The notes under the pieces are model-generated. The model did no database searches and was not told the DNA's origin. It saw only the letters and a list, made by a program, of their open reading frames with translations. A stretch of DNA of 14,032 nt from a virus. The position numbers and the translations under genes were made by a program. The first letter of the stretch is position 1. Every line of letters begins with the position of its first letter. Location: the UHGV virus genome UHGV-0332040; one strand, 5' to 3'. Shown in pieces: positions 1 through 14,032 of the stretch.

Positions 1-1
1 A

Positions 2-415
2 TTAGTGCGCACTCATACGCGCCATGTTCAACACCTTCCGCACAGAGGTTTCAGACACGCCAACCTTACTTGCAATGTAACGATTCTTCTGGCCTTTTGC
101 AGAGCGCTCGATAATGTCAGCGCGTACTGCCTCAGTGATCACCTTGCGGGGTCTGGCTCGATTCTTCTCGTGCCGTTCACGTTCGCGCATCCGCTCGGCC
201 ATCTTCGGCGGCAGCACAGGGGAAAGCCCACGGCTAACGCCAGAGGTGCGGGTGTCGGACGTGGCAGCTCGGGCAACGATATAAACCACTTCGTCTGGAT
301 TGAAAACGTGCTGCACACGCTCAGGGTAAATGTGGTCGCATCTACCCAGCGGCAAGGCGAAATCCGGGCGCACGTCAGCGACACGCTCCACGGCATGGAA
401 ATTACAGGTACTCAT
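2..415 (-). CDS. DNA-binding protein with C-terminal helix-turn-helix (137 aa), function unknown
   Basis: Complete ORF with the stop at 2-4. A GAGG SD lies 6 nt upstream of the ATG at 415. The C-terminal segment RYIASKVGVSETSVRKVL looks like a resolvase/transposase-type HTH preceded by a basic RERERHEKNRARPRK stretch. The plus-strand ORF 5-418 is its antisense shadow. Confidence 0.6.
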   Translation of the reverse strand: MSTCNFHAVERVADVRPDFALPLGRCDHIYPERVQHVFNPDEVVYIVARAATSDTRTSGVSRGLSPVLPPKMAERMRERERHEKNRARPRKVITEAVRADIIERSAKGQKNRYIASKVGVSETSVRKVLNMARMSAH

Positions 416-554
416 TAGGAACCTCGGTTAATTAAAAACAGGCTTTTAGATGCCGCGCAGAATGCAGCTTGCGGGGACTCATGCGCTTAGATTGGTGTGG
501 TAGTACCGGGTTGGAGCGCACTCAGTCTTGCAGGGCGCATTCCACCGTTGGGCG

Positions 555-1241
555 TTAGCGACCAGCACGTTTGCCAGCGGAGCGCTGCGCAACCAGAGCG
601 CGGTATTGAATGTCGTACTGGCGATGGCCGGGGCCATACCCTGATTGCTGCGCCCACTGCGAAAGCTGATCATACGCTGCAATAAACTCAGCATGAGACA
701 TACCAACAGGTTGCGAGGCAGGCTGGCCGTATGGGTTCCCCTGTGATGGGACATAACCAGTCGCAGTGCCTGCGGCCATACGCTCTTGCAGATAATGAAC
801 CGCCCGCTGCATCTGCGCAGGGTCGCCAGACATAACCATCCGTTCAAGGGTTGATTGCGTCCCGGCGTCGAGCGTGCCAGCGTACTGCAACATCGCGTCA
901 ACTGTACCCTGCCCTAGCTGGCTTTCGACAGACTGGTGAAACTGCCCCATCAGCCCATGAAGTTCAGGAGTCAACTCAACAGTAGTGCCATCCTGTAATT
1001 GCAGTGTGTCGCCCACTTGTGCAGCAACATCAATCTGCTGGTCTTGCTGGTTGGCAAAGTTACTTTCGCTCCAGCTTTGATTAATGTTCGCTGGCTGCGT
1101 TTTCAGGAAATCAGCATCAGGTGTTGTCTGGTCGAATCGGCTAGCGCCGTTGTCAGCACCTACAGGTGCGGCCATGTACGGCGATTGCTGCGGCGCAGTA
1201 TCAGCGCCCGAAAGATATGGATTAACATTCTGGTCAGCCAT
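555..1241 (-). CDS. Hypothetical Q/N/D-rich acidic protein (228 aa)
   Basis: Long ORF in the same orientation as the operon. Its ATG lies 2 nt after the upstream stop (GCATAATCATG), and a GAGG sits about 10 nt upstream. I recognised no family motif. Confidence 0.6.
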   Translation of the reverse strand: MADQNVNPYLSGADTAPQQSPYMAAPVGADNGASRFDQTTPDADFLKTQPANINQSWSESNFANQQDQQIDVAAQVGDTLQLQDGTTVELTPELHGLMGQFHQSVESQLGQGTVDAMLQYAGTLDAGTQSTLERMVMSGDPAQMQRAVHYLQERMAAGTATGYVPSQGNPYGQPASQPVGMSHAEFIAAYDQLSQWAQQSGYGPGHRQYDIQYRALVAQRSAGKRAGR

Positions 1242-1243
1242 GA

Positions 1244-1483
1244 TTATGCAACCTCTTGTGATGTAACTCGGCGATGTGCCAGTTCAAGTAAAAGCATGTG
1301 TGCGTGTACGCAGCGTGGGGGAATCATCTTCTGACCGTGGTACGCCTTGCAGAGATCTTGTCTGTCAATTTGATACACACGAGCCAGATCGATTTGGCGT
1401 AGATTCAAGGCATCAGCAATGAATTTCAGTTGTTGCCCGCACTCCACCGCGCGGCGCGGCTCCATTAAAATGATGGTGCTCAT
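1244..1483 (-). CDS. Small HTH-like protein (79 aa)
   Basis: The start is trimmed to the ATG at 1483, which has GAGGA 7 nt upstream; the track ORF extends to 1525 without an RBS. The segment LNLRQIDLARVYQIDRQDLCKAYHG resembles an XRE/Cro-type HTH. Confidence 0.5.
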   Translation of the reverse strand: MSTIILMEPRRAVECGQQLKFIADALNLRQIDLARVYQIDRQDLCKAYHGQKMIPPRCVHAHMLLLELAHRRVTSQEVA

Positions 1484-1497
1484 GAAATAATCCTCAG

Positions 1498-1731
1498 TTA
1501 GATAAGGCCATGACGACGCAACCAACGTCGCTCGCCAACGGAGCCACGCGGTCGCTGCCTTGGGTTCTGGTTTGGTGCTTGGCCGGGATCAGTTCGTCCT
1601 TCCCCGGACAGGTTCTGTGTCAGCACATCCCAGCCGCGTGATTCAAACGGGGCGTATCCCTCGCGCTGTTCGTCAAGGTTCACATAGAGATCAGGGTTAA
1701 CGGCAGGGTGCAGCGGTTCGTTCTCTGCCAT
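1498..1731 (-). CDS. Hypothetical protein (77 aa)
   Basis: The ATG at 1731 overlaps the stop of the upstream gene (TGATG). It is co-oriented with the operon, and the next gene's SD lies in the 14-nt gap downstream. No recognisable motif. Confidence 0.45.
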   Translation of the reverse strand: MAENEPLHPAVNPDLYVNLDEQREGYAPFESRGWDVLTQNLSGEGRTDPGQAPNQNPRQRPRGSVGERRWLRRHGLI

Positions 1732-2291
1732 CACTTAGCCCCGAATCGCGTGTTAACATCTTCCAAAATATCGGGGTAGCTCCAGCGGTTACGCATCAGG
1801 CGCAGGACATGAGCAACAGCCTCAACAGAGATCCCAAGCTCTCCAGCGATCTCGGTTTGTTTCCAGCCGAAGCGCTCCAGCTTGTGCATCTGATCGAGGT
1901 CGGCGCTCAACAGGCGGCGCATCGTCTGAGGTTTCTCAGGCTTCGCTTTAACAGCTTTCGGCATCGGGTGGGTGTGGGCGTTGCTAAAGCGGGAATGTGC
2001 GATAGCCAGCACAGTCTCAGGGCGAATCAGCATATCGCGGGCAATCATAAACTCTGTATCGCGGTGCAGCTTGCCGGGCTTATAGCGGCTGCGGATGGCG
2101 TTGTACTCCGCCAGAGTGATATCAGCATCGTCTTTCCAATTTTCGGCCAAGTCATCGACATAGACGCCACGGATTACAGCATCAATATCGGTCAGGGTAT
2201 GACCTGTCTCCGCTGCAATCTCTTCATTGTTCTTTAGGTGCTTATGAGCCAGCGTGTTAATGCGCTGGATATCGGTAATGCTCAAAGTCAT
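1731..2291 (-). CDS. Putative DNA-binding protein with two HTH-like segments (186 aa)
   Basis: ATGA overlap with the upstream 58-codon ORF, and GGAG 8 nt upstream. The C-terminal WKQTEIAGELGISVEAVAHVLRL resembles a sigma-70 region 4 / LuxR-type HTH. The N-terminal NEEIAAETGHTLTDIDAVIRG is a second HTH-like stretch. Confidence 0.65.
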   Translation of the reverse strand: MTLSITDIQRINTLAHKHLKNNEEIAAETGHTLTDIDAVIRGVYVDDLAENWKDDADITLAEYNAIRSRYKPGKLHRDTEFMIARDMLIRPETVLAIAHSRFSNAHTHPMPKAVKAKPEKPQTMRRLLSADLDQMHKLERFGWKQTEIAGELGISVEAVAHVLRLMRNRWSYPDILEDVNTRFGAK

Positions 2292-2464
2292 ACATTAAAC
2301 TCCGAATCAAAATTGATCTGGTCAGTAACCAGCGAATGAATCAGCGCAAGGCTGGATGCGGTATGTGTGCCCGACTTGCGGGCGTTGTCGTACATGAAGC
2401 GGGCTACACGTTGATATTTCTCCGGCAGCGTGGCGAACCATTGCCGGAACTGTTCGGGGGTCAT
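2288..2464 (-). CDS. Small hypothetical protein (58 aa), absent from the ORF track because it is shorter than 60 aa
   Basis: Hand translation gives MTPEQFRQWFATLPEKYQRVARFMYDNARKSGTHTASSLALIHSLVTDQINFDSEFNV. It has ATGA overlaps at both ends (2461-2464 and 2288-2291). GGAGG lies about 10 nt upstream. It fills an otherwise unexplained gap in a tightly packed operon. Confidence 0.5.
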   Translation of the reverse strand: MTPEQFRQWFATLPEKYQRVARFMYDNARKSGTHTASSLALIHSLVTDQINFDSEFNV

Positions 2465-2670
2465 TGGTCGTCATCCTCCGGGAACACGTTGTTAAAGGTT
2501 GTATCAGGCGAGTCGGCGGCGTTCTGCTTGAGGAAGTTCACGCAGGATGACAACTCGGCAGCAGCCATGCGTGACTCTCCCGCCTCGTCCTCCTTAAGCC
2601 TGCGCGTCAACGCACCCAGCAGCAGGGTTTTTAGTTCCCATGCTCCGGCTTCAAATTCAGATTTCGTCAT
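2461..2670 (-). CDS. Small acidic hypothetical protein (69 aa)
   Basis: ATGA overlap with the upstream gene at 2667-2670, and GGAG about 10 nt upstream. There is a faint by-eye resemblance to small T7 gp18-like proteins (AAELSSCVNFLKQN versus PQLYNAINKLLDRH). That is not enough to name the product. Confidence 0.5.
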   Translation of the reverse strand: MTKSEFEAGAWELKTLLLGALTRRLKEDEAGESRMAAAELSSCVNFLKQNAADSPDTTFNNVFPEDDDQ

Positions 2671-3098
2671 TGGTGGTTATCTCCAGTTAGTCCCATTGCA
2701 CGCAAGTGTTGAATGACCTCGGCATGTACTGGTTTTGGTAAAAACAGGCGACGCTGCACGGATTGAAGTATCTCGTCGCGCGTCTTGTCGGCAGGGTGAA
2801 CAGTCCCATTAAAGACCTCACGAGCCATGCGATAGGTCGGCCAAAGGCGAGCGCCATCCTCCCTGCGACGGAATCTATTCAGCACAGCGGCCAGACACTC
2901 CCACGGCTCACAGTTATTGAGCAGGCAATACCGCTGTAGCGGTGTCGTTGCCCGGCGCATGATGGCTTCACGATTAAGGGTCTGAATATGACGTTCGGCC
3001 AGTCCGTCGAATGAATAGCCGTTCAAAGCAAAGGCGAGCTGCGCATTAAGCAGGGCGTCAGAACGCCCCGCACGATGCAGTGCGGTTTCATCAGGCAT
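2667..3098 (-). CDS. Hypothetical protein (143 aa)
   Basis: ORF with GGAG 8 nt upstream of the ATG at 3098. It is co-oriented with the operon and coupled to the downstream gene. No family motif recognised. Confidence 0.6.
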   Translation of the reverse strand: MPDETALHRAGRSDALLNAQLAFALNGYSFDGLAERHIQTLNREAIMRRATTPLQRYCLLNNCEPWECLAAVLNRFRRREDGARLWPTYRMAREVFNGTVHPADKTRDEILQSVQRRLFLPKPVHAEVIQHLRAMGLTGDNHQ

Positions 3099-3141
3099 AA
3101 GGATTCTCCAGAAAGGAATTTAAACAGGCGAGCTGGTCAGC

Positions 3142-5031
3142 TCAGAGGAAGCGGGAGATGTAACCCCAATTGCAGTTTTCAGGGCGGTACAACGCTGCCA
3201 GCTCATCAGGTACACCGGACGGCACCGGGGCAGAGTCGGCGTCATAGGTGATGGGGTCGCCATACAGAGCCAACGATGACCACAGCAGAAAAGCACGGGC
3301 AGGTTGACCGTCACGCCCGGCACGTCCGATCATCTGAACTAAATCGGGCAGGTCTTCGGGAACATAAGTGACAATTACGTTACGCACGCCAGAGATATCA
3401 GCCCCCAGCCCGAAGGCTTTAGTAGCAATCAGAACCGCGCCGGGCGTGCTGGCAAACCACGCAGCGTTAGCGTGACGCTGGTCGCGGCTCAGTCGCTCAA
3501 CGTCAGAATGGTAAGGCCGGGCGCGGTCTCCCAGTTCGTTGAGATACGCATACAGCATCTTGATACTGTCCACCATCACCAGCGTCTTCTCATCCAGCGG
3601 GAGGGCATCGACCAGACCAACGGCAGCCCGGCGCGTAGTTGCGCACTGCTGAACAGGAATAAGCTGGATGTTTTCACGGGCAGCACTGGCGCGGTAGGTG
3701 AGGAACTCGCCACGACAGCCAAGCTCTTTCATCAAGCCAGACTCATCACCTTTTCGCAGGGTCGCAGTAAACGCGCACCGCTGAGCATCCGGGAAGGCAT
3801 TTTTCAGGGTGTGTTTCATTGCAGGGAAAGCGTCCCGGAACTCCCATTCATCAACGGTATGAACCTCGTCAATGATAAATCTGTCCACACCAGCGGCCAT
3901 CAGCGCAGCCAGCACCTGATTGCCCGGCACCAGATGCTCAGGTGAAACTACGGCAACGTGGAAAGCGCCAGCAGCCAACCCCGCAAGCTGTTGCGCATTG
4001 CGTCGCCTCGGCAGCTTGTCGCCAAAGGCAACAGCGTGAACGCCAGTTTCTAGCAACTGCTGTAACACCTGCTGCTTGATGGTGTTTGTAGGCACAACAA
4101 TAACGGTCAGACCGTCATCAGAATCAGATTCAAATTGCAGGGCATAGGTGAATGCAGCCGTCTTTCCGTACCCGGTTGGCAGTACGGCCAATACATCGCG
4201 GTCACGGGCAAATACGGCGGCAGCTACGTCCTGCTGGCCGGGTCTCCAGTCTCTGCCATCTAGCGGTGGTAACGGTACGAATGCCGGGCGGTCGCATTGC
4301 TCCAGCTCGCGGAACCTGTACGGCGCGGTAACCAGCGGCGGGATGGACGGCGGCAGGCCAGCACCCCCAACGTCACAATGCAGATTCAGCGTATTGAATT
4401 TATCATCCGTGGGTTTCAGCTCACCGCACCACAACTGACGGAAAGCCGGGCAGTCACCCAGTCGCGTAAAGTCAGCATGGCGCATAGCTTCCAGCTTGCT
4501 CATGCCGCGACTGATACGACGCACGATCTTCTCATCGCAAATCAGAAACTCACGGCAGGCTTTGAGGAAGGCATTCTGCCCGGTTGTCGCTTCCGGGATG
4601 GAGTGCTCGCGCGGTTTAAGCGCAGCGTCATCAACGCGAACGCCGGGGAAATCTGGCGGCAGCGGCTCGGCGTACCGGGCAGGCTTTTTGTTTAGCCACA
4701 TCTCCAGCTCAGCGCGGCGGCAGTGGATTGCATCGCCCGGCTGGATAATCTGGCGCAACCCGGCATCAGCGCGGCGGGAATGTCGCTTGCGGCCAATTCC
4801 ATTCGCCTCTTTCCATTCACGGAACGACATAACTGAACCATCTGCATTGTAGAAATACTGCCCGGAAACGGTGTTAAGCGCTGCCTTCACTGGTCGCTGT
4901 TTAACAGGGCATAACTTGGAATGAGGTATAACGATCTTATCCGCAACCAGTTGCTGAGCATCCGCAGGCTCGGTGTTCAGCGGTTCGGCGTCAGCGGCCA
5001 GCGTAAGCAAGCGGTTTAAATTGGTTGGCAT
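3142..5031 (-). CDS. RecQ-family SF2 DNA helicase with an unassigned ~260-aa N-terminal domain (629 aa)
   Basis: Helicase motifs run in order: WRPGQQ (Q-motif-like), LPTGYGKT (motif I), IIDEVH (motif II, DExH) and FTATL (motif III). The end YHSD...LIATKAFGLGADISGVRNVIVTYVPEDLPDLVQMIGRAGRDG matches RecQ motifs V/VI (GRAGRDG). GGAG lies 9 nt upstream of the ATG at 5031. Confidence 0.85.
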   Translation of the reverse strand: MPTNLNRLLTLAADAEPLNTEPADAQQLVADKIVIPHSKLCPVKQRPVKAALNTVSGQYFYNADGSVMSFREWKEANGIGRKRHSRRADAGLRQIIQPGDAIHCRRAELEMWLNKKPARYAEPLPPDFPGVRVDDAALKPREHSIPEATTGQNAFLKACREFLICDEKIVRRISRGMSKLEAMRHADFTRLGDCPAFRQLWCGELKPTDDKFNTLNLHCDVGGAGLPPSIPPLVTAPYRFRELEQCDRPAFVPLPPLDGRDWRPGQQDVAAAVFARDRDVLAVLPTGYGKTAAFTYALQFESDSDDGLTVIVVPTNTIKQQVLQQLLETGVHAVAFGDKLPRRRNAQQLAGLAAGAFHVAVVSPEHLVPGNQVLAALMAAGVDRFIIDEVHTVDEWEFRDAFPAMKHTLKNAFPDAQRCAFTATLRKGDESGLMKELGCRGEFLTYRASAARENIQLIPVQQCATTRRAAVGLVDALPLDEKTLVMVDSIKMLYAYLNELGDRARPYHSDVERLSRDQRHANAAWFASTPGAVLIATKAFGLGADISGVRNVIVTYVPEDLPDLVQMIGRAGRDGQPARAFLLWSSLALYGDPITYDADSAPVPSGVPDELAALYRPENCNWGYISRFL

Positions 5032-5052
5032 GGTGCAAACTCCAGAGAAGGA

Positions 5053-5490
5053 TTAAATACTACGCGCCCAAGCTAAATCTTCGGGTGTCCGACTTTCGAT
5101 TAACGCTAACTGCCAGCGTAAGTAATCCTCATGTTCTTTGGTGTATCGGGGAATACCTATAGGATTTTTCACAGCGTCCGGGTTAGTCCTCGCGACTTCC
5201 CTGCAATCTCGGTCGAAAGCCCAGCGGGCAACTTCCACCGATTCGTAATCCGTAAATCGGTACGGCCTTGTGCGGGAACGTACACGCCAGACAACTTGCC
5301 CTAATTCGTGGATGTATATGCCGCAAAGTTCATCCGGGCTTGGGTGATACAATGGCTCCCCATAATTCTGGCGCATGAACTTCACAAACTTTTGATTGCG
5401 GCGGGCACGCCGTGCTTTTTCGCGTCGCTCCTCGGCTTCATACTCTTTTTGAATGGCGGCACGGTCTACCGGGATAAGTGTTTTGCTCAT
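5053..5490 (-). CDS. Hypothetical protein (145 aa), first gene of the helicase operon
   Basis: The start is trimmed to the ATG at 5490 (MSKTLIPVD...), which has GGAG about 8 nt upstream. The track ORF extension to 5667 runs through the iteron-like repeats and has no RBS. Basic EERREKARRARRNQK stretch; no family recognised. Confidence 0.6.
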   Translation of the reverse strand: MSKTLIPVDRAAIQKEYEAEERREKARRARRNQKFVKFMRQNYGEPLYHPSPDELCGIYIHELGQVVWRVRSRTRPYRFTDYESVEVARWAFDRDCREVARTNPDAVKNPIGIPRYTKEHEDYLRWQLALIESRTPEDLAWARSI

Positions 5491-5560
5491 ACAGTGATCT
5501 CCAGAAATTAATGTGAGTTTGGAACGGGGCGCAGGACGGAAGCGCCGGGAGTGTGGCAGT

Positions 5561-5914
5561 CTGTCCTCCTTAGTAGTTACCATCATTGCAATGGCGTCGG
5601 AGTTCTGTCTCTCTTTAGTAGTGATCTTCATCCAGTAATTTGGATTAAATGCAGACACGGCGGGCATTGCAGCGAGATGGAGAGTAGGCGGGCTTGCGGT
5701 TTCAGTCTGCCTTAGTACAAGTTTCTAGTGGTCGGTAGCCTTTCCCTTATTAGTAGCTCTCATTTATCCGGGGCTTGTCTTCCCACACAGTAGCCGTCTT
5801 CTAAAGCAACCACACCACAATCCACTACTGGCAAGGAGTTAGCAGACACGGTGATGTAGGCTACTCAAGTGTGGATTTGTAGGCGTTTTATAGTATCTGT
5901 CCTTCTTATTAGAC
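5561..5914. repeat. Array of six degenerate iteron-like repeats (plus-strand consensus about CTGTCYTCYTTAGTAG)
   Basis: Copies lie at 5561-5576, 5605-5621, 5705-5718, 5739-5756, 5774-5793 and 5897-5914, all in the same orientation. Three are spaced about 35 bp apart. A second perfect 10-mer, GCAGACACGG, occurs at 5651-5660 and 5842-5851. Confidence 0.6.
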
Positions 5915-5980
5915 ACCTTTAAATTTCATTAATAAATACAGTTAGTTAAACGGTTATCTTTATTACTTATAAATTTCACA

Positions 5981-6002
5981 GATCAATAAATTAAAATTGA
6001 TC
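5981..6002. repeat. Perfect 7-bp inverted repeat carrying two GATC sites (GATCAAT-N8-ATTGATC) inside an AT-rich block
   Basis: Read directly from the sequence. The surrounding region, about 5915-6050, is strongly AT-rich by eye. Confidence 0.7.
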
Positions 6003-6015
6003 GGAATTATCAGCT

Positions 6016-6044
6016 TTAATTTTCTTGACAGCTATTTGTATAAT
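6016..6044 (+). promoter_or_regulatory. Candidate sigma-70 promoter (perfect -10 TATAAT at 6039-6044, weak -35 TTAATT at 6016-6021)
   Basis: The TATAAT is preceded by TG at 6037-6038 in an AT-rich context. The TTGACA at 6025-6030 is only 8 bp from the -10, so it cannot be its -35. No plus-strand ORF lies downstream. Confidence 0.3.
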
Positions 6045-6050
6045 GGTTTT

Positions 6051-6190
6051 AAGAAGTTGTATCGGAGTGAGCGACTGGCAGTGAGCGTAGCGAACGATAA
6101 GCCAGTCGGCGAAGAACGAAGAGTATGAGATGACTTGTCATCGAATACGATGAGTGATTGAGCGGTACGAACGGAGATACGCTGTATAAC
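6051..6190 (+). ncRNA. Candidate structured purine-rich RNA downstream of the TATAAT promoter
   Basis: Stop-rich, with no ORF on either strand apart from the low-complexity 64-aa track ORF on the minus strand. There is an 8-bp perfect stem CGACTGGC/GCCAGTCG (6072-6079 / 6101-6108). There is a near-palindromic hairpin at 6123-6148 and a possible closing helix GTATC/GATAC (6059-6063 / 6176-6180). The motifs GAGTGAGCG and CGAACGA repeat. Ends and strand are not established. Confidence 0.3.
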
Positions 6191-6222
6191 AGTTAGAACA
6201 GTTAACAAGCTGATTAATGCTT

Positions 6223-6387
6223 TCAATGATTATCTGAATCAGTGTTATCAATTCCGAAATAACTCTTCCTCTCCTGTATTGATTCAATCATTTCTTTCAT
6301 TTCAAGAATCACTACCAGCTCAGCTAATAACCGTCTCAGTTCAACATTTGAATCATTAGCACGACACTTATTTTCTGAGTATTCCAT
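6223..6387 (-). CDS. Small charged helical protein (54 aa), below the ORF-track cutoff
   Basis: Hand translation gives MEYSENKCRANDSNVELRRLLAELVVILEMKEMIESIQERKSYFGIDNTDSDNH. GGGAG lies 8 nt upstream of the ATG at 6387. A candidate promoter lies upstream. The gene is AT-rich, moron-like in composition. Confidence 0.45.
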   Translation of the reverse strand: MEYSENKCRANDSNVELRRLLAELVVILEMKEMIESIQERKSYFGIDNTDSDNH

Positions 6388-6432
6388 ACGGTCAACTCCC
6401 TACGGTATAAGTCCATTCCAATCCGTTCACAG

Positions 6433-6460
6433 ATTACATTGCTGAATGATCATCAGACAA
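6433..6460 (-). promoter_or_regulatory. Candidate sigma-70 promoter for the 54-codon ORF (TTGTCT-16 nt-TGTAAT) with a GATC-centred near-palindrome in the spacer
   Basis: On the minus strand the -35 is TTGTCT (6455-6460) and the -10 is TGTAAT (6433-6438). The spacer overlaps the near-palindrome CTGAATGATCATCAG (6442-6456). The motif GTGAACGGATTG (6419-6430) sits at the predicted transcription start. Confidence 0.35.
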
Positions 6461-6479
6461 GTGGCAGTCATCATCACCA

Positions 6480-6920
6480 AGTTAGAGTCGTCTCGCTACA
6501 TATCCCCGCCGGATTGCCAGCGCGGCTAACACGGTTGTGAGGAGCGCCGAGCATCACAGCGGACGCAGGCCGATGAACGAGCCGTAGGTGAGTGAAAGCG
6601 GACTCGCGGACGCGAGAAGCGCAGCAGCAGGCGGCGACTGATAAACGAGCCAGACAGGTGAGTGCAAGCAGGCGTAAGCACTGCACCGTTGAGAGGTGTG
6701 GAGACGGCGGAACGTCTCCGCGTTAGGGAGGTGGATTTGGGGAGGATGTGCAAGGCACACCTCGCTCCACCCACGGGGTGTCGGTGGGTAGGGGTATAAC
6801 GCTAATTGGTTAAGTGTACACATGTACGCTGAAATCATTAAAAGCCTATAGAAACAGCATGTAACCCAGCACCACGACATAACCAATTATCGTTGAACCC
6901 CCTCCCCGGCCCCACCCGGA
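6480..6920. ncRNA. Candidate large structured non-coding element (GC- and purine-rich on the plus strand)
   Basis: There is no credible ORF; the three minus-strand frames are open only because that strand is pyrimidine-rich. Five strong hairpins lie at 6603-6616, 6657-6687, 6700-6719, 6742-6763 and 6769-6789. Two ~30-nt degenerate repeat units lie 68 nt apart (6572-6601 and 6640-6672). G-runs at 6726-6745 and 6775-6794 face a C-run at 6898-6919. AT-rich sequence flanks the island. Confidence 0.3.
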
Positions 6921-7089
6921 ATTTTTCAGTGATGAATCACTTCACAATCTGATCTCGATGTTCATCGTCTGGCACGGCTAAAGCCCCGCCATCTCTTCAC
7001 ATCGAGAGCCGCAAGTAATACGAAAATACATTATAAATCATAGCATTACGACATCGCGCATAACATAACGCTCTGAAATTAATACGAAA

Positions 7090-7207
7090 GCTGTAGGTCA
7101 TCCATCACCCACAGCCCAGTAACGGCCAGTGCTGGCACCTCATTTGGCTGTAGGTCAGCCCGACCCCACCGCCCAATAACCCCACCCGGCAGCAATGGCA
7201 CGGCACC
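7090..7207. repeat. Tandem pair of ~50-60 bp degenerate direct repeats starting GCTGTAGGTCA
   Basis: Unit 1 is 7090-7139 and unit 2 is 7147-7207. Both begin GCTGTAGGTCA and end ...GGCACC. TAATACGAAA is duplicated just upstream at 7016-7025 and 7080-7089. Confidence 0.65.
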
Positions 7208-7329
7208 AGACGCAGCGTAACGATCTCTGAGTTGATAAATCACTTAGGGCAGCGTAACCCACACCCAACGGCTCACATCCTCGCAGAGAGGCTCACAGAT
7301 CACCTCGTGACATTTCACAGCATCAACCC

Positions 7330-7953
7330 TCAGACGCTGGCAGCCAGCTCACGCTTAATGCGGTAGAACGTTGCCCGGCTTATCCCGGCAGCTTTCATGA
7401 TGCGCTCCGGTTTCACACCCTGCGCCAGCATTTCCCTGACGGTCTCGCGAGCGGCGGCATCCTTCTGACTCCCACGATAAAGCCCCTCAGCTTTGGCTCG
7501 TTCAATGCCCTGCCGCTGGCGCATCAGTCGCGTCTCGTAGTCCACGCGGGCCATTGTAGCGAGGATATCGATCAGCATTGCGTTAACGGCTCTGAGGATG
7601 CCGCTGGTTAGCTCTGACGCGGTTTCGTTCAGCAACTGCCACGAGGTTGGCAGGTCAACGGCGACGATCACCAGCCCCTTATCCTGAATCCTCTGTTTCA
7701 GTGTCGCCCATTCCTTTTGTGTCAGGCGGCTTAGCCTGTCTATGCTTTCGACAAGTAGAACGTCGCCAGCCTCCGCCTCACCCAGCAGGCGCATCAGTTC
7801 AGGACGCTCCAGCCGCGCACCGCTGGCGTTCTCGATGTATCGCGCAGCAATAGACCAACCACGCTCATTAGCGAAATCCTCCAGCGCAGGAACGGCACGG
7901 TCGGCGTGTTGCTCGGCGGTGGATGCCCTGGCATACAGACGAACGTTATTCAT
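7330..7953 (-). CDS. Small serine recombinase (resolvase/invertase family, 207 aa)
   Basis: The N-terminal RLYARASTAEQ carries the catalytic-serine motif. VLLVESIDRLSRL is the resolvase core motif. ISRATFYRIKRE is the C-terminal HTH. GGAGGG lies 6 nt upstream of the ATG at 7953. Confidence 0.9.
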   Translation of the reverse strand: MNNVRLYARASTAEQHADRAVPALEDFANERGWSIAARYIENASGARLERPELMRLLGEAEAGDVLLVESIDRLSRLTQKEWATLKQRIQDKGLVIVAVDLPTSWQLLNETASELTSGILRAVNAMLIDILATMARVDYETRLMRQRQGIERAKAEGLYRGSQKDAAARETVREMLAQGVKPERIMKAAGISRATFYRIKRELAASV

Positions 7954-8062
7954 GATTCACCCTCCAAATCTCAGTGAAGTATCACATCCCGACATGAAGG
8001 AGATCACACTTAAAAACCGTGGTCAATAGGGTATAAAATAAATTTGATTGCGACAGCTTAGG

Positions 8063-8210
8063 CACATCACAATGCGGTATACCCGGATGAGACAGAGACA
8101 GCCAGCGGCAGACTGGCACCGAGTCACAGCAAAACCCCGGCGCACCCAGCGAACGCAGCGCAAAGCGCACACAGGAGATCAGCACGGCACCGCCACGATC
8201 TCGAAATCAC
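8063..8210. repeat. Right-hand copy of a direct repeat that also occurs left of the recombinase gene (6938-7243)
   Basis: Shared motifs are collinear. CACWTCACAAT lies at 6938 and 8063. CGGCAG-N3-TGGCAC lies at 7187 and 8105. GCACGGCACC lies at 7198 and 8182. ACGATCTC lies at 7220 and 8195. AAATCAC lies at 7237 and 8204. Confidence 0.6.
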
Positions 8211-8536
8211 AAAGGCGTTGAATCAAACATTGCAACCGCAGCAGTAACCAGCCAGCATTTCGCGCCTGCAACGGTTGTCTCGGATGAGCAAAATCTTAGG
8301 GTTTTCTCAGCGACCCCTGACGCGCGGGCACGCACATGCGCACGGGGGCGCGGGCGAGCTATACAGTTGAGGGAGGGGCAACCATAAGCGTGCAATTTTT
8401 CAAGCCGGGACTTTTAACAGTGGGATTGTGAGGCTATTTTGCATTCAGAGAGTGAGGCTGTAGGGTAGCTCCCCTTGAACCAGATAACGCTAAGCTAACC
8501 ATTTTCCCCACTGCTTAAGCCACTTTGCGTTGACGT

Positions 8537-9037
8537 TCAGCACCCCACAGCAGCATTATCCGGCATCAGAAACGGAATCAGTTTAGTATCACCATGCACA
8601 TATAACGGGTGCATAGGCTCTCCCGTTGCGTTAATTTTAAAACACTTCGTATCTACAGGAAGGAACGCCCGTACTACGGCAGAGCGTTTCAGGTGCCGCC
8701 CTTCATTCCCCCACGCAGCAACAACGATACCAGCACCAGCTATCAATTCTGCCAGATACTTATCATTATCCGCCCCGACAGGCTCCGGGAATCTCATCAT
8801 CTCAAAGCGGTCAGTACACACATACGCGAACAGGTTCGCGATACGTACCCCCCCGAAGCCCCAGCTCTGCGCAAATGAGATACAACGTTTCAGTGTGGGG
8901 TCGTCAAGCTCTGCGTCCGCATACGATGGATTCAAACCGATGAAAAGAGCATAAGGCTTTGCAGCGTCCCACGTTCTGGAAATAGCGTAACGGTACTTCC
9001 CGCACACAGAGAAGATCGCGTCTTTGTTCACATCCAT
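8537..9037 (-). CDS. DUF1643-family protein (166 aa)
   Basis: From memory, this is the strong family pattern of DUF1643 proteins. It includes CGKYRY...R.W, LFIGLNPSYAD, DDPTLKRCISFAQSWGFGG, NLFAY, AAWGN and HPLY...TKLIPF. The start ATG at 9037 lies 2 nt after the stop of the upstream small ORF, with GAGGG as its SD. Confidence 0.85.
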   Translation of the reverse strand: MDVNKDAIFSVCGKYRYAISRTWDAAKPYALFIGLNPSYADAELDDPTLKRCISFAQSWGFGGVRIANLFAYVCTDRFEMMRFPEPVGADNDKYLAELIAGAGIVVAAWGNEGRHLKRSAVVRAFLPVDTKCFKINATGEPMHPLYVHGDTKLIPFLMPDNAAVGC

Positions 9038-9039
9038 GA

Positions 9040-9180
9040 TTAACCCTCTTCACTACGTTTATCATCCCGCATCGAGTCAATGAAGTCGCGTTGCTCCTGC
9101 GTCAGTTCCAGATTTTCTAACAACTTGTCTAATTCTATTTCGGCGGATTCTTGCTTCTGCAAACGCTCTTTGTCAGCCAT
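9040..9180 (-). CDS. Small highly charged coiled-coil-like protein (46 aa), below the ORF-track cutoff
   Basis: Hand translation gives MADKERLQKQESAEIELDKLLENLELTQEQRDFIDSMRDDKRSEEG. Its stop TAA (9040-9042) is followed 2 nt later by the ATG of the DUF1643 gene. An AT-rich promoter-like region lies upstream. Its own SD is weak. Confidence 0.5.
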   Translation of the reverse strand: MADKERLQKQESAEIELDKLLENLELTQEQRDFIDSMRDDKRSEEG

Positions 9181-9205
9181 GCCAAGCCCCACAAGATTAG
9201 GATTA

Positions 9206-9233
9206 ATCTTAGGCTACAAAATGATCAATACAA
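9206..9233 (-). promoter_or_regulatory. Candidate promoter of the small-ORF/DUF1643 operon (TTGTAT-16 nt-TAAGAT)
   Basis: On the minus strand the -35 is TTGTAT (9228-9233) and the -10 is TAAGAT (9206-9211). The motif CAATCCGTT (9238-9246, minus strand) abuts the -35. Confidence 0.3.
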
Positions 9234-9785
9234 ATGCAACGGATTGTTATTTATTACAGATACAAGAATTAAGGGGGAAATAATCAGGAGGGGATGCCCC
9301 GGACTGCCAGCACAGAACCGGGGCGAATGCGGACGGAGCCACCCATCAGCCGAATAACCATAGCCTATTTTCTGGCAATAGCAAGCCATAAGCGCCGTGT
9401 TGGGTACACTCAGCAGCAGCGCCATCGGCGCATCATCATCTCAATCTTGTACAATCATCCGTTCACTTATCGAGTACCGTTCATTTATGGCACGGTGAAC
9501 ACCACGGCAGAGCCAGCCCCTTTCCCGGACTGGTTAGGCTTCCCAACATCAGCTCGTTTATCCGTGGCGTGTCATCACGACAGGCGGGAACCGGACACCG
9601 CGCTAAGTGCGGAACAGATGAATGTTTCAGGGAATCATGCCGGGTGAACGGCTTTCAGTTCATGTTGGACTATCGCGGTATGACCAGTGGAACGACCGCC
9701 AGCGCTTTGCTAAACTCCCTGTTCACCGTTCAACAAATCGCGGCAACTATCAGGGTAAATAGCGGTACTTTGGTCACATCACCTT

Positions 9786-9875
9786 AGAGCTAACTCATTG
9801 AGTTATAAGGCTTTTAATGGGCTGGAGCGGGCGAAGGGAATCGAACCCTCATAGCTAACCCATTGAATTGTGAAC
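9786..9875. repeat. Imperfect 25-bp direct repeats bracketing the att core (AGCTAACYCATTGARTT)
   Basis: The copies at 9786-9810 and 9851-9875 match at about 18 of 25 positions by hand alignment. A further 9-mer, GCGGTACTT, lies at 9762-9770 and 9890-9898. Confidence 0.65.
9823..9850 (-). other. att core: 28-nt copy of the 3' end (T-arm, acceptor 3' strand, CCA) of tRNA-Gly(CCC), glyU type; not a complete tRNA
   Basis: The minus strand reads GAGGGTTCGATTCCCTTCGCCCGCTCCA. As I recall it, this matches the 3' end of E. coli glyU. Sequence 5' of it on the minus strand (9851 onward) cannot form the acceptor, D or anticodon arms. Confidence 0.85.
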
Positions 9876-9938
9876 CAAAATAAGTAATCGCGGTACTTAT
9901 CCCGGTAGTTGGTAGCGGTAGATTACAAGGTAATTACC

Positions 9939-11165
9939 ATGCCAATCAAGAAGACTTCTTATCTTTATGCAAACAAAGATGGGATATTCATCTTTCAAAT
10001 CTTTATCCCGGTGTACATGCGCCACTTATGGCACGGGCGGCGCTCACTCAAGAAATCGACAGGCACGCGGGACATCATGCAAGCTCGCATATTCCGTGAC
10101 CAATACTTATTAGAGTTCCGAAAGCTCCAGCTCATGATGAAACCGGATAACCCTATAAACCGGATTCATTCTGCTATTTCAGATCTTCACTTACTGGCGG
10201 GAATATCCAGCGACATTACCGCGCCCGTAACTACTCCAGCAGAACGAGGGAAACCAGCGTCGCCAAAATTGACAGATGTCAGTAAAGAATATGCAGAGCA
10301 ATACAAAGATCGGCGCTCTTATTCCACATTGAGTAAATCCGCTCGCGCTGTATCAGCATTCACTAAATCAACTAAGCGCCCAACAATTACAATAAACGGA
10401 ATCGGGCGGCGGCTCGTCTCTGACTTTCTGAAAGCGAACCAAGATAAGTTTTCCCGGCAGACGATGCAAAACTGGTTAACTTGCTTAGGTACGCTGTACG
10501 ACTTCGCCCGGCGTAAATATGACAATATCGCCCCTGATAATCCCTTTCACGGCCACAATCTGGAAGCCCGTCAGACAAACGAAAGTTACCAGCCGTTTGA
10601 ACCGCACCAGCTACAGACATTAACAAAAAAGGCAGGTGACGAAATAAGGGATGTAATAATAATCGGGCTGTATTCCGGGATGCGTCTTGATGAAATAGCC
10701 AGCATTAAACGGGATGAGGTTGTCACCATCGACGGCGTGCGGTGTTTCTATGTCAGTAAATCAAAAACAAAGGCGGGTATAAGGCATGTCCCTGTACACT
10801 CGCTGTTATTTGACATTGTTGATAAATACCTCGCGCAAAACAGCGGGGAGTACCTGCTCCCCCAATCCAACAAAATTAAACGCGCGGATGGTAAACGTGG
10901 GCCGTGGTATTCTCAGACATTTACCCGCTTACGTCGCCGGGTACTACCAACAGCCACAGAGCGCCAGTGTTTCCACTCCCTGCGTGGTCACTTCATCACC
11001 TGCTTAGACCGGGCAGGTGTACCAGAACAGCGCATAGGAGCTATTACCGGGCATACAGAGAAAAAGGCAAAGACGGAAGCATTTAAAACGTACAGCCAAG
11101 GGGCTGGGATGAAAGAACTATCTGAATACGTAGAGCTGGTAAGTTATCCAGAACTTGAATCATAA
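9939..11165 (+). CDS. int: Tyrosine recombinase / phage-type integrase (408 aa)
   Basis: The C-terminal catalytic pattern is present: GMRLDEI (Arg), HSLRGH (His-x-x-Arg) and GHTEK...FKTY (His and Tyr). It lies directly next to the tRNA-derived att core. The start is trimmed to the ATG at 9939; the track start at 9909 is a TTG. Confidence 0.9.
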   Translation: MPIKKTSYLYANKDGIFIFQIFIPVYMRHLWHGRRSLKKSTGTRDIMQARIFRDQYLLEFRKLQLMMKPDNPINRIHSAISDLHLLAGISSDITAPVTTPAERGKPASPKLTDVSKEYAEQYKDRRSYSTLSKSARAVSAFTKSTKRPTITINGIGRRLVSDFLKANQDKFSRQTMQNWLTCLGTLYDFARRKYDNIAPDNPFHGHNLEARQTNESYQPFEPHQLQTLTKKAGDEIRDVIIIGLYSGMRLDEIASIKRDEVVTIDGVRCFYVSKSKTKAGIRHVPVHSLLFDIVDKYLAQNSGEYLLPQSNKIKRADGKRGPWYSQTFTRLRRRVLPTATERQCFHSLRGHFITCLDRAGVPEQRIGAITGHTEKKAKTEAFKTYSQGAGMKELSEYVELVSYPELES

Positions 11166-11167
11166 TT

Positions 11168-11596
11168 TCAGGCAGGGTAAATAATCCCCAGCCCGCGATA
11201 CTGGCGGCGGTATTCTCTGACCAGAGCATCCGCCGTCGCCCTCGGCAGCTTCGCCATATGCCCGGTACGATAGCCACCCTCGGCAGAATTCGCTGCACGA
11301 TGTACAACAGCCCGCACGCGCCCGGTTCTGTGGTCGTGGTCGAGGGTCGTGCTGCTGAACGCAACAGCCCGCCCGGTAACGGCACACCGTCGATACTGAT
11401 AATTCCACAGAAAGCAACGCACCGCAGCCACGTCAGCACGGCGCAACTCCAGTCGCCCTGAACCATTCAACAGGAGGCGATACACATCGTCGAATGCAGC
11501 AGCGTTTCTAACGCGCTCAGCCAGCGGCATATTGCCAAGGAACTCCAGATAATCCCGCATTGCTTTTCTTAAAAGTTGGTCTGTCCGTGTAACCAT
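11168..11596 (-). CDS. Endonuclease VII-family (His-Me finger) protein lacking most zinc-binding cysteines (142 aa)
   Basis: CAVTGRAVAFSSTTLDHDHRTGRVRAVVHRAANSAEG aligns with the family pattern CxxCG...DHDHxTGxVRGLLCxxCNxxLG. The DHDH and Asn are retained but 3 of 4 Cys are replaced. GGAG lies about 10 nt upstream of the ATG at 11596. Confidence 0.7.
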   Translation of the reverse strand: MVTRTDQLLRKAMRDYLEFLGNMPLAERVRNAAAFDDVYRLLLNGSGRLELRRADVAAVRCFLWNYQYRRCAVTGRAVAFSSTTLDHDHRTGRVRAVVHRAANSAEGGYRTGHMAKLPRATADALVREYRRQYRGLGIIYPA

Positions 11597-11868
11597 GATT
11601 CAAAGTCTCCATTGTCAGACACAGCCCGCTTGCAGGCTTCGTATTCTTCGCGCTGGCGTTGGCATACCAGAGCATAAAGCTCATCAGCCACCGCATTTAC
11701 GCGCCTATCACTGATACCGTTGCGACGCATCTGCCCCAGCAGCTTACGAAATTCAGCCTCAAGCTCAGGCTCTCCTGTATCCATTACCCACTGTTTCAAG
11801 TCAGCGAGTGCGCCAGTCATTGGCGGCGGCTCGATGTACCGCCACCTTAATTTAATCGTCAAAGCCAT
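11569..11868 (-). CDS. Hypothetical protein (99 aa)
   Basis: The start is placed at the ATG at 11868, with GAGG 7 nt upstream. Alternative starts lie at 11874 and 11820. The gene overlaps both neighbours, as is typical of phage late clusters. No motif recognised. Confidence 0.5.
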   Translation of the reverse strand: MALTIKLRWRYIEPPPMTGALADLKQWVMDTGEPELEAEFRKLLGQMRRNGISDRRVNAVADELYALVCQRQREEYEACKRAVSDNGDFESWLHGQTNF

Positions 11869-12277
11869 AAGCATTCCTCTTTATATCGTTTGCTCTCGCT
11901 TCACTGGCTTGTTTAAGCGTCATTCCTTCGATAGCTATATCCAGCAGTTCCTTTTGCTTACCAGCCAATCGCAAGGCGCTGTCTCTCCAGCAAAGCAGAA
12001 AGAAGATTGTCAGCACCTGTTTACTCAATCCATCCAGAAGATCGCCAAGTCCTTGATCCAGCAGACAGGCACGCCATGCAGCAGCGTGCTGCGTCATAGC
12101 ACCGACTATCGGGATAGGTGCGCCAAGCATCGTCGCAAGCTGACTCATAACACTATTAGCATCGCCCGGATGCAGCCGGGGAATAGTCATGCGGCCAGCC
12201 TGCGCCAACAGCTCGGCGTACCTCTGGCGACGTGGGTCATCACATGCCAGCGGTTTAATTGGCTTTTCATCAGCCAT
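11852..12277 (-). CDS. Hypothetical protein (141 aa)
   Basis: GGAGG lies 8 nt upstream of the ATG at 12277. It follows the HNH gene after an 18-nt gap. No motif recognised. Confidence 0.6.
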   Translation of the reverse strand: MADEKPIKPLACDDPRRQRYAELLAQAGRMTIPRLHPGDANSVMSQLATMLGAPIPIVGAMTQHAAAWRACLLDQGLGDLLDGLSKQVLTIFFLLCWRDSALRLAGKQKELLDIAIEGMTLKQASEARANDIKRNAYGFDD

Positions 12278-12295
12278 ATATGGAACCTCCGAGGA

Positions 12296-12823
12296 TTAGG
12301 CAGCCTGCAACAAATCGGCTGGCGTTGAGGGATGGTATCTGGCTTTAGCTTTTAGATAGGCAGCACGCGCCGCCGCTTCGGTTGTGAACAAGCCAAGGTG
12401 ATGGCGTACACCATTAACGCGAATGTAAGCCTCCCATTTACCAGAACAAGAATGACGGCTATATCCCTTCGCTTTGCGGTAGTTGTGCTGATTCTCCTGC
12501 GGTGTAACAGCGCGGAGGTTGCCCGGTCGATTATCGGCACGTACAGCGTTAATGTGGTCGATTTGCAGACCGTCAGGGATACCACCATTAGCAATGATGA
12601 AGGCCACGCGATGCGCATAAATCGAGTGCGTCCTGCCGTCGATGCGGACAGACACGCGCCGATACCCGGCGCTGTCCGTTGCGGTGTCAGCCAGTTCCCC
12701 GGCCTCAGCATAAATCCGCTTGTTGATTCCAATTCGGTCTACTGCATGGAACAGGCGGCCAGTCTCCGCATCGTATCGAAATAAAGAGCGTAGCAGCTCA
12801 GGGGCGTAAGCATCATTAACCAT
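12296..12823 (-). CDS. HNH homing endonuclease with C-terminal AP2-like DNA-binding domain (175 aa)
   Basis: IDHINAVRADNRPGNLRAVTPQENQHN is the HNH_3-type motif. The N-terminal YDAETGRLFH...GYRRVSVRIDGRTHSIYAHRVAF is typical of this phage endonuclease family. GKWEAYIRVNGVRHHLGLFTTEAAARAAYLKA looks like an AP2 domain. Confidence 0.85.
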   Translation of the reverse strand: MVNDAYAPELLRSLFRYDAETGRLFHAVDRIGINKRIYAEAGELADTATDSAGYRRVSVRIDGRTHSIYAHRVAFIIANGGIPDGLQIDHINAVRADNRPGNLRAVTPQENQHNYRKAKGYSRHSCSGKWEAYIRVNGVRHHLGLFTTEAAARAAYLKAKARYHPSTPADLLQAA

Positions 12824-12839
12824 GACTCAGCCCCTCCAG

Positions 12840-13835
12840 TTACACAGCTTGTCGGAAATTGATAACGCAGTCAGGGCGGCGCAGTCCAACATTGAACAGG
12901 CGATATGAGTCCATCACCATCGTCATTTCGCGCTCATCATCCCACTGGCGATTGATAACGCTCTGCGCTTCGACTGTCACAAGTACAGACGCAGGCCGGA
13001 ACAGCGTCGCCCGCGTCAGCGCTTCCTCTGAGGTAACGTCATAATCAGCGCCCAGTTCATGCCCGGTAATAGCTTCCTGCGGGTAACTGTTCAGCTCAAT
13101 GACTCGTACCCCAGCGACATAGCCAACTCGACGCCATGCGTAATCGTTGCCACTATCCCGGCTGTAACGGACGTTCATCAGCTTCTTATGTTCCATCAGG
13201 ATGCTGAACCAAGCCGGGTCGATAAGCAGTACCAGCTCGGCCACCGGAATATCTTTCTCAGTGAGAAAGCGATTAGCAGCCGCTTTTACGACGTGAGCCA
13301 ATTCGTTTGCGGCGTCCTCTTCGCTCCCCGCTGTCAGGTCGAGCGATACAACGTTATCCGTTAGTGGGTTAAACGTTGGTTGCAGTGTCGGCGGCGGTAC
13401 AAAGTCAGTCGCTTTGATTAGCTGGATGGTGTGCGCTTCGTCGTAGAATTTAGCGTGAGCAGTACCCATATTGCGGCTCAGCTCTGCGCGAAAGGTGGGC
13501 GCTGTCCAGTCGTCCTGATAGTCAATCGGAATGCGGATATAGCTCAGCGTATCCACAGAGATAATCAGCTTATCCGACTTAACAGCGGTAGGCTCCAGCG
13601 ATTGCCCTGCGGTTCTGCCCTTCACCTCCAGATCACCACTCAGGCGATCAATGCGGTATTGGTTGCTGGCTTTCAGCGGCCTGTATGTAGACAGCCCCTC
13701 TGCCAGAAATACGGATTTGGACTCTAAACGGGTCTGGACATCCCGGTCATAAGCCTCGATGTGAATATCATTGTCGGATTCCACCCCGCCATAATGTGGG
13801 CGAAACAGATCGGGACTGTACGAAGTATCAGTCAT
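12840..13835 (-). CDS. Major capsid protein, T7 gp10-like (HK97 fold) (331 aa)
   Basis: By-eye alignment to T7 gp10A matches two blocks. FRAELSRNMGTAHA aligns with VRSEYTSQLGESLA. The C-terminal LFRPASVLVTVE...GLRRPDCVINF aligns with LFMHRSAVGTVK...GLRPEAAGAVVF. The start is trimmed to the ATG at 13835, with AGGAG 8 nt upstream; the track start at 13880 has no RBS. Confidence 0.75.
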   Translation of the reverse strand: MTDTSYSPDLFRPHYGGVESDNDIHIEAYDRDVQTRLESKSVFLAEGLSTYRPLKASNQYRIDRLSGDLEVKGRTAGQSLEPTAVKSDKLIISVDTLSYIRIPIDYQDDWTAPTFRAELSRNMGTAHAKFYDEAHTIQLIKATDFVPPPTLQPTFNPLTDNVVSLDLTAGSEEDAANELAHVVKAAANRFLTEKDIPVAELVLLIDPAWFSILMEHKKLMNVRYSRDSGNDYAWRRVGYVAGVRVIELNSYPQEAITGHELGADYDVTSEEALTRATLFRPASVLVTVEAQSVINRQWDDEREMTMVMDSYRLFNVGLRRPDCVINFRQAV

Positions 13836-13894
13836 AAACAAAACTCCTACGTAGGTTGATGAAGCCCGCGCCATCGTCATGGCACAGACGTGCG

Positions 13895-13919
13895 GAATCC
13901 TCCCGCCGAGGCAGGATTC
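13895..13919 (-). promoter_or_regulatory. Stable hairpin in the capsid gene leader
   Basis: The minus strand reads GAATCCTGCCTCGGCGGGAGGATTC, giving a 7-bp stem plus 2 further pairs. It lies about 60 nt upstream of the capsid ATG. No U-run follows, so it is not a typical intrinsic terminator. Confidence 0.35.
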
Positions 13920-14032
13920 AGAACGGTATCGATTAAAGGGATGAGGTGCCCCGAAATGGGCGTTTTGAGGCCAGAGCTGGCGCGGTTCTCAGAGGTTAGT
14001 GCGCGTGAAGTAAGGCGAACGTATTACCTTGC

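Follow-up and report, generated by a model that had tools for sequence, protein, structure and literature searches.

Resolvases of the Tn3 type act at a res site that lies upstream of their own gene, is about 120 bp long and contains three dyad subsites, with crossover at the central 2 bp of the distal one (PMC12217951; PMC2428073), and the distance between sites I and II amounts to 4-7 helical turns (PMC12217951). The res of Sin is 86 bp with two subsites, of which site II is a direct repeat, and HU or IHF is required (PMC2428073). SGI1, an island that integrates and excises site-specifically, carries an active Tn3-like resolvase and res, and elimination of island multimers has been obtained experimentally (PMC12217951). 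The subject here is a serine recombinase gene in UHGV virus genome UHGV-0332040, whose whole 14,032-nucleotide stretch of viral DNA is referred to as the window. A sequence-only reading had proposed that the gene is bracketed by collinear direct repeats, at which the gene might be excised or which might be res-like sites for multimer resolution. We consider it likely that the product of 7330-7953 is a small serine resolvase whose one cognate res lies at 7967-8094 and which serves multimer resolution.

The recombinase and its upstream res

7330..7953, minus strand: small serine recombinase of the resolvase type, 207 amino acids (aa), with Pfam Resolvase and HTH_7 domains
7967..8094, minus strand: res, 128 bp, six half-sites in three dyad subsites, directly upstream of the recombinase ATG at 7953
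8065..8094, minus strand: site I, the putative crossover site, centred at 8079/8080 inside the invariant palindrome GGTATACC; half-sites TGTCTCATCCGGGTA (8080-8094, minus strand) and CATCACAATGCGGTA (8065-8079, plus strand)
8019..8055, minus strand: site II; half-sites TGTCGCAATCAAATT (8041-8055, minus strand, weak) and GTGGTCAATAGGGTA (8019-8033, plus strand, strong)
7967..8005, minus strand: site III; half-sites GATCTCCTTCATGTC (7991-8005, minus strand, degenerate here) and AATCTCAGTGAAGTA (7967-7981, plus strand)

The protein matches PF00239 (Resolvase, E = 3.9e-25, residues 6-157) and PF02796 (HTH_7, E = 1.3e-6, residues 170-202), and its size of 207 aa, with an N-terminal catalytic domain and a C-terminal helix-turn-helix (HTH), fits the small serine recombinases, which are about 180-210 aa. 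In alignment with gamma-delta resolvase, YARAST with Ser11 falls on the catalytic YARVST with Ser10, and IDRLSR (D72, R73, R76) falls on LDRLGR. The closest solved structures are Sin/Bin3 of staphylococcal plasmids and Tn552 (2r0q, E = 3.8e-14), followed by gamma-delta resolvase (E = 1.4e-12). The inner end of the Sin site I half-site is presumably GGGTA, as it is here. Relatives of the recombinase are mostly plasmid genes, in about 5,000 plasmid records, some of them named resolvase or parA, and the plasmid homologs are 39-70% identical in aa. A homolog at about 67% nucleotide identity is also present in more than 500 Escherichia coli genomes; in the one genome examined, E. coli O157:H7 EDL933, it sits at 11970-12596 of the extracted locus (L088), in a prophage remnant near argW.

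The 260 nt before the recombinase start codon were aligned for 19 loci whose proteins are 62-100% identical in aa, and about 150 bp of this is deeply conserved. The conserved part is described by six copies of a 15-nt half-site, consensus AGTCTCAATAGGGTA, at offsets from GGTATACC of -11(+), +4(-), +28(+), +49/50(-), +76-78(+), and +100-102(-). The GGTATACC core (8076-8083 in the window) is invariant in 19/19 loci, standing 117-130 nt before the ATG, and is found again in 9/9 further metagenome loci at -128 to -132. The layout recurs in 28 loci, an IncFIB plasmid included, namely pDSMZ13645, which has all six half-sites upstream of a 70%-identical gene. Homologs that are ~50% identical, alphaproteobacterial ones as well as ones on plasmids, retain a near-identical site I, e.g., GTCTTTAGGGTATACCTTTAGAAGAC. 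A 16-nt pattern scan of viral contigs returned 50 stretches, of which 49 are chance matches and only one (L037) is related, and the literature on GGGTATACC with resolvases yielded nothing specific.

When the whole window is scanned with the half-site matrix, the only cluster is 7967-8094, the left flank has no hits, and exact GGTATACC occurs once in the 14 kb; there is exactly one res per element monomer. When only the distant loci L013-L020 are used for training, the two best matrix hits in the window are 8019-8033 and 8080-8094, as expected. Each subsite in the window has one strong and one weak half-site, while in relatives site III has clear half-sites, e.g., TGTATCATTTAGGTA and ATTCTCTTTTGAGTG at the L015 locus. 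The centres of sites I and II are 42.5 bp apart, about four helical turns. Site II overlaps a conserved TTGAC that is likely the -35 of the recombinase promoter, and site III adjoins the ribosome-binding site.

Compared with Tn3 and gamma-delta, the locus is alike in combining a small serine recombinase having a C-terminal HTH with a three-dyad res directly upstream, in placing the crossover site farthest from the gene with AT in its palindromic centre, in having proximal subsites that overlap the promoter, and in res length, 128 bp here versus 114-120 bp (PMC2428073, PMC12217951). It is unlike them in that the proteins share only about 25% aa identity, the subsites are 30 bp, 37 bp, and 39 bp for sites I, II, and III versus 28/34/25 bp, the half-site has its own sequence (AGTCTCAATAGGGTA), and the spacing of sites I and II is about 4 turns in place of the usual 5, although within the 4-7 range of PMC12217951. 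Furthermore, there is no transposase among the open reading frames (ORFs) of the 14-kb circle, and the element has no terminal inverted repeats. Sin, the best match by solved structure, differs in its res, since there are three subsites here and site II is an inverted repeat. SGI1 likewise has three subsites in a res that precedes its resolvase gene, and variable cargo adjoins that res (PMC12217951), but it is a plasmid-mobilised island, whereas the window element is capsid-encoding and satellite-like. The res of SGI1 measures 107 bp, is centred on AC and is unrelated in sequence. The plasmid multimer-resolution resolvases (parA-annotated, RP4-type) are connected to the window gene through the plasmid homologs and the six-half-site res shared with pDSMZ13645, but the replicon here is an integrative element, and the upstream region of a parA-annotated homolog is not matched by the half-site matrix.

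The window is a complete 14,032-bp circle, its end joining its start by comparison with an integrated copy in E. coli 5735, where window 9822-14032 followed by window 1-8243 forms one unbroken stretch. As each circular monomer has one res, the reaction to be expected is resolution of dimers or multimers. Such forms, arising from replication, homologous recombination or packaging, either free or as tandem integrants, would carry two res copies in direct repeat on one molecule. Three resolvase dimers would bind sites I, II, and III, the two res copies would synapse, and the enzyme, by analogy with Tn3 and gamma-delta, would cleave at the AT in the middle of GGTATACC in site I and exchange the strands there, so as to release monomers. 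Because sites II and III overlap the promoter and ribosome-binding region, the resolvase probably represses its own gene. The sequence-only reading was right in kind when it offered res-type multimer resolution as an alternative, but there is one res at 7967-8094 and not two copies in the flanks, and of the motifs it proposed as sites, just one belongs, CACATCACAAT at 8063, which is the gene-proximal half of the crossover site.

A number of points weigh against the resolvase reading. Site III, at 39 bp, far exceeds its 25-bp counterpart in Tn3 and gamma-delta, and three of the six half-sites in the window are weak, with scores of 7.7, 7.0, and below 5. The cluster given by the independently trained matrix is not significant alone (3 hits versus 2.3 in shuffles), hence the case rests on positional conservation. 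If a helper phage packages the element from concatemers, the need for monomerisation is not self-evident. Resolvase binding, cleavage, and the multimers themselves are throughout what we infer.

The recombinase slot and left flank in related elements

The related elements number 39, of which 12 come from genomes or viromes and 27 are metagenome loci of sufficient length. All 39 have a serine recombinase in the slot between a backbone block and a cargo region, and neither a deletion junction nor a recombinase-less relative was found among them. The slot is filled either by type A, which is like the window, or by type B, as in E. coli E2348/69, and the two types are 28% identical to each other. 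The type B module, at 12037-12762 of the E2348/69 locus (L089) and also in L090, has a recombinase of 189-191 aa and its own upstream repeat array. On either side of the slot the L006 and E2348/69 elements share 94% identity, with the gene and upstream array swapped; one boundary of the swap directly follows GCTGTAGGTCA (window 7157) and the other is 10-20 bp outside site I. Upstream conservation in type B starts at the first repeated half-site (GGTGTCATCAATCG...) with differing sequence beyond it, and in both types the conserved block begins at the type's own first half-site. Gene plus res is a cassette in the evolutionary sense, exchanged by recombination in conserved flanks, and not a self-excising one. 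This non-orthologous replacement of the recombinase argues for a generic function composed of a cis site plus an enzyme.

The left flank, beyond the stop codon of the recombinase, has these parts.

6895..7160, minus strand: conserved backbone block with a strand-specific folded element, core 6932-7031
6953-6961 / 6999-7007: core stem of the folded element, around an invariant hairpin at 6971-6990
7016 and 7080, 7090 and 7147: repeats of the backbone block, TAATACGAAA and GCTGTAGGTCA, respectively
7158..7329, minus strand: variable 3' insert of 172 bp, from the recombinase stop codon to the backbone, holding four of the five left-flank motifs of the sequence-only reading

Elements whose recombinase genes share 76-77% identity, or are unrelated, still agree at about 84-93% over the block at 6895-7160. 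Because it is present beside both recombinase types, the folded block is a feature of the backbone, not of the recombinase. Folding compared with shuffles gives z = -4.8 for the minus strand and z = -1.4 for the plus strand. Over 25 distinct sequences, two-sided changes are seen at 7 of 11 stem pairs with 98.8% of cells staying paired, and pairing drops to 27-40% in slid controls for the core stem. An invariant G.U pair and U.G intermediates in the core stem are compatible with the minus strand only. Rfam has nothing credible on the whole window, nor on 6400-7400 with lax filters, and covariance model R1 finds no copies beyond the helicase-bearing element family. In the satellite, the folded element may serve as an origin, a packaging signal, or a regulatory RNA. 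Derivation of this block from the cos or pac site of a helper phage was considered and is unsupported; the phage collection has no DNA match for the block, nor for the recombinase locus or whole window. A long imperfect inverted repeat is present nearby at 6786-6906, with 30-nt arms that are 80% complementary and 61 nt apart, followed on the plus strand by CCGG..CCGG and AATTTTT; it occurs in the closest relatives only.

The 7158-7329 insert is absent in L005, L006, and L007 and has unrelated sequence in its place in L011 and L012. Its length is 0 bp in L109, 172 bp in the window, about 260 bp in L009, L112, and L118, and about 390 bp of unrelated sequence in L122 and L126. The longer inserts begin with a promoter-like TTGACA-17-TTTTAT, and for that reason may carry small transcripts.

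The left flank is indeed repetitive, with four exact direct repeats of at least 10 nt versus 0.10 expected (0/500 shuffles). CCCCACCCGG at 6910 and 7180 and TAATACGAAA at 7016 and 7080 are exact repeats. The tandem duplication it described at 7090-7139 / 7147-7207 is reduced to an imperfect direct repeat of 34 nt, 7090-7123 / 7147-7180, with 79% identity, and Tandem Repeats Finder called no array, this repeat included.

Other explanations of the locus

We think it unlikely that the module is a plasmid- or transposon-derived passenger, its array acting mainly as an autoregulatory operator or, by rare recombination with plasmids or among the elements themselves, shuffling the neighboring cargo. 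The same module is indeed found on Enterobacter plasmids, and the weakness of three half-sites in the window would suit a passenger. Homology between related elements also breaks just outside site I, at window ~8100-8111, beyond which the cargo varies among DUF1643, DUF3800, or a TIR-domain protein. However, the breakpoints are 10-30 bp outside res and not at the site I centre, so that the exchange looks like ordinary flank recombination instead of site-specific crossover, and cargo swapping by crossover at site I was rejected on this ground. The topological filter of resolvases further disfavors intermolecular fusion (PMC12217951), and the filling of the slot in 39/39 elements by either of two unrelated recombinases speaks for a selected function in the element.

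That flank direct repeats (6938-7243 and 8063-8210) are recombination sites at which the recombinase excises its own ~1-kb circle is a proposal we give very little credence. The five motif pairs are there in direct orientation and can be read directly in the sequence, with left and right positions as follows.

6938 / 8063: CACTTCACAAT / CACATCACAAT
7187 / 8106: CGGCAG..TGGCAC
7198 / 8182: GCACGGCACC
7220 / 8195: ACGATCTC
7237 / 8204: AAATCAC

The question is whether they mean anything. Gapped local alignment of 6900-7329 with 7954-8536 scores 21 versus 20.4 +/- 2.4 in dinucleotide shuffles (p about 0.4), and other standard scoring schemes are likewise at chance. Very lenient gap costs applied to the coordinates of the sequence-only reading give p = 0.003-0.01, which is in favor of self-excision but is a post hoc test. 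Also in its favor, the flanks share 26 seven-mers versus 14.6 in shuffles. The collinear chain of these (k = 7) is 54 versus 55.4 +/- 7.9 after position permutation, with an anti-collinear chain of 50; being no longer than permuted, it makes the shared order of the motifs uninformative. The words in common come down to a handful of oligomers (TCACA, ATCAC, GGCAC) whose enrichment is marginally significant, TCACA/ATCAC being found 10 times versus 2.3 expected, with p = 1.3e-4 uncorrected and about 0.07 after correction. These two words were also considered as extra weak half-sites, which the matrix does not support. The flanks had been called A/C-rich, which holds for the left at 62% and barely for the right at 55%.

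Among the relatives compared, all five motif pairs are together in the window only. L008, whose recombinase is 100% identical in aa, has only the left motif set, and L004 has only the right one, while in the closest relatives, L001, L003, and L009, motif pairs are lost by one-sided substitutions. L109, with a recombinase 99% identical in aa, lacks the whole 7158-7329 segment. The left and right sets are inherited independently in relatives. All 39 related elements have the gene, and none displays a deletion junction. Moreover, the uniqueness of GGTATACC and the left flank's lack of matrix hits leave no second site for such a reaction. The flank motifs are not meaningful repeats and have no role, except that CACATCACAAT at 8063 is half of site I.

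A Hin/Gin-type DNA invertase, flipping a segment that might be its own gene as in Salmonella Hin, is scarcely credible either: the top PHROG match is a family called 'DNA invertase' (phrog_125, E = 6e-42) and the gene does lie between weak inverted repeats, such as 6935-6949 / 8424-8438 (80% complementary over 15 nt) and GGGTATAACGC at 6792-6802 against GCGGTATACCC at 8074-8084, but there is no second site I in either orientation, the 6626-6899 region with the GGGTATAAC look-alike is absent or unrelated in most relatives, about 40 loci are all collinear in blast comparisons with no inverted segment, and three accessory-type subsites beside the crossover site are a resolvase feature that sets the locus apart from Hin, Gin, Cin, and Pin. 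The sequence-only reading had already set an invertase aside for want of inverted repeats, and we agree, as no inverted partner site and no inversion were found at any locus.

The element, its cargo and a possible need for a resolvase

The window is the circular form of a tRNA-Gly-integrating, satellite-like element. Apart from the resolvase module, its features are as follows, with all but the attP core coming from ORF and domain scans.

9822..9853, no strand: attP core, identical to the tRNA-Gly 3' end
9909..11165, plus strand: tyrosine integrase (Pfam Phage_integrase, E = 8.3e-10; phrog_1)
3142-5031: DEAD-box helicase
12840-13880: major capsid protein
12296-12823: HNH endonuclease
11168-11596: endonuclease VII
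555-1241: weak scaffold-like match
8537-9037: DUF1643 protein

In E. coli 5735, the same element is integrated beside tRNA-Gly, with the two ends of the integrated copy overlapping on window 9822-9845, and in strain UTME-7, both att sites match the 9822-9853 stretch, one of them inside tRNA-Gly. The annotated integrase homolog in E. coli 5735 has a start equivalent to window 9939. A tRNA scan of the window finds no tRNA, and in the literature no description of such a satellite family was found. The sequence-only reading regarded a tyrosine integrase together with a serine recombinase as notable in itself; both are present, but the combination is not unusual, as SGI1 exhibits (PMC12217951).

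Between res and att, window 8095-9822 is variable cargo, as it is also in the equivalent regions of L004-L007, L089, and L090. The cargo gene is DUF1643 in the window and DUF3800 or a TIR-domain protein in other elements, and the region looks like a hotspot for accessory or defense genes. One stretch of the region, window 8330-8409, has a 100% match to 80 bp in ~79 E. coli genomes that do not have the rest of the recombinase locus, and in one of these, E. coli ABWA45 (9001-9080 of L091), it is in a decayed element remnant at tRNA-Leu (leuX) beside insertion sequence (IS) elements. At the integrated copy in E. coli 5735 (L002), identical copies of another island of 4-5 kb are on both sides of the element, at 1623-5653 and 20636-24666. 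This island adjoins tRNA-Gly and encodes a 544-aa integrase, a DUF4145 protein, and two hypothetical genes; the arrangement points to a tandem array of islands into which the element inserted, or else to an assembly artefact.

What these comparisons do is replace a self-cutting recombinase model with an ordinary and testable one. They give exact coordinates and a half-site consensus for an uncharacterised, widespread resolvase/res subfamily on plasmids and integrative elements. It is possible, though we put it only tentatively, that there is more here than an ordinary resolvase, in a family of ~14-kb, tRNA-integrating, capsid-encoding and satellite-like elements whose slot is always filled with one of two unrelated resolvase/res modules and is adjoined by a folded element of about 100-260 nt, RNA or single-stranded DNA, that covariation supports. 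Furthermore, the findings suggest that small integrative elements that are replicated or packaged as multimers need a dedicated monomerising system, as with SGI1, a need that is supported because the slot is strictly filled by either of two unrelated resolvases.

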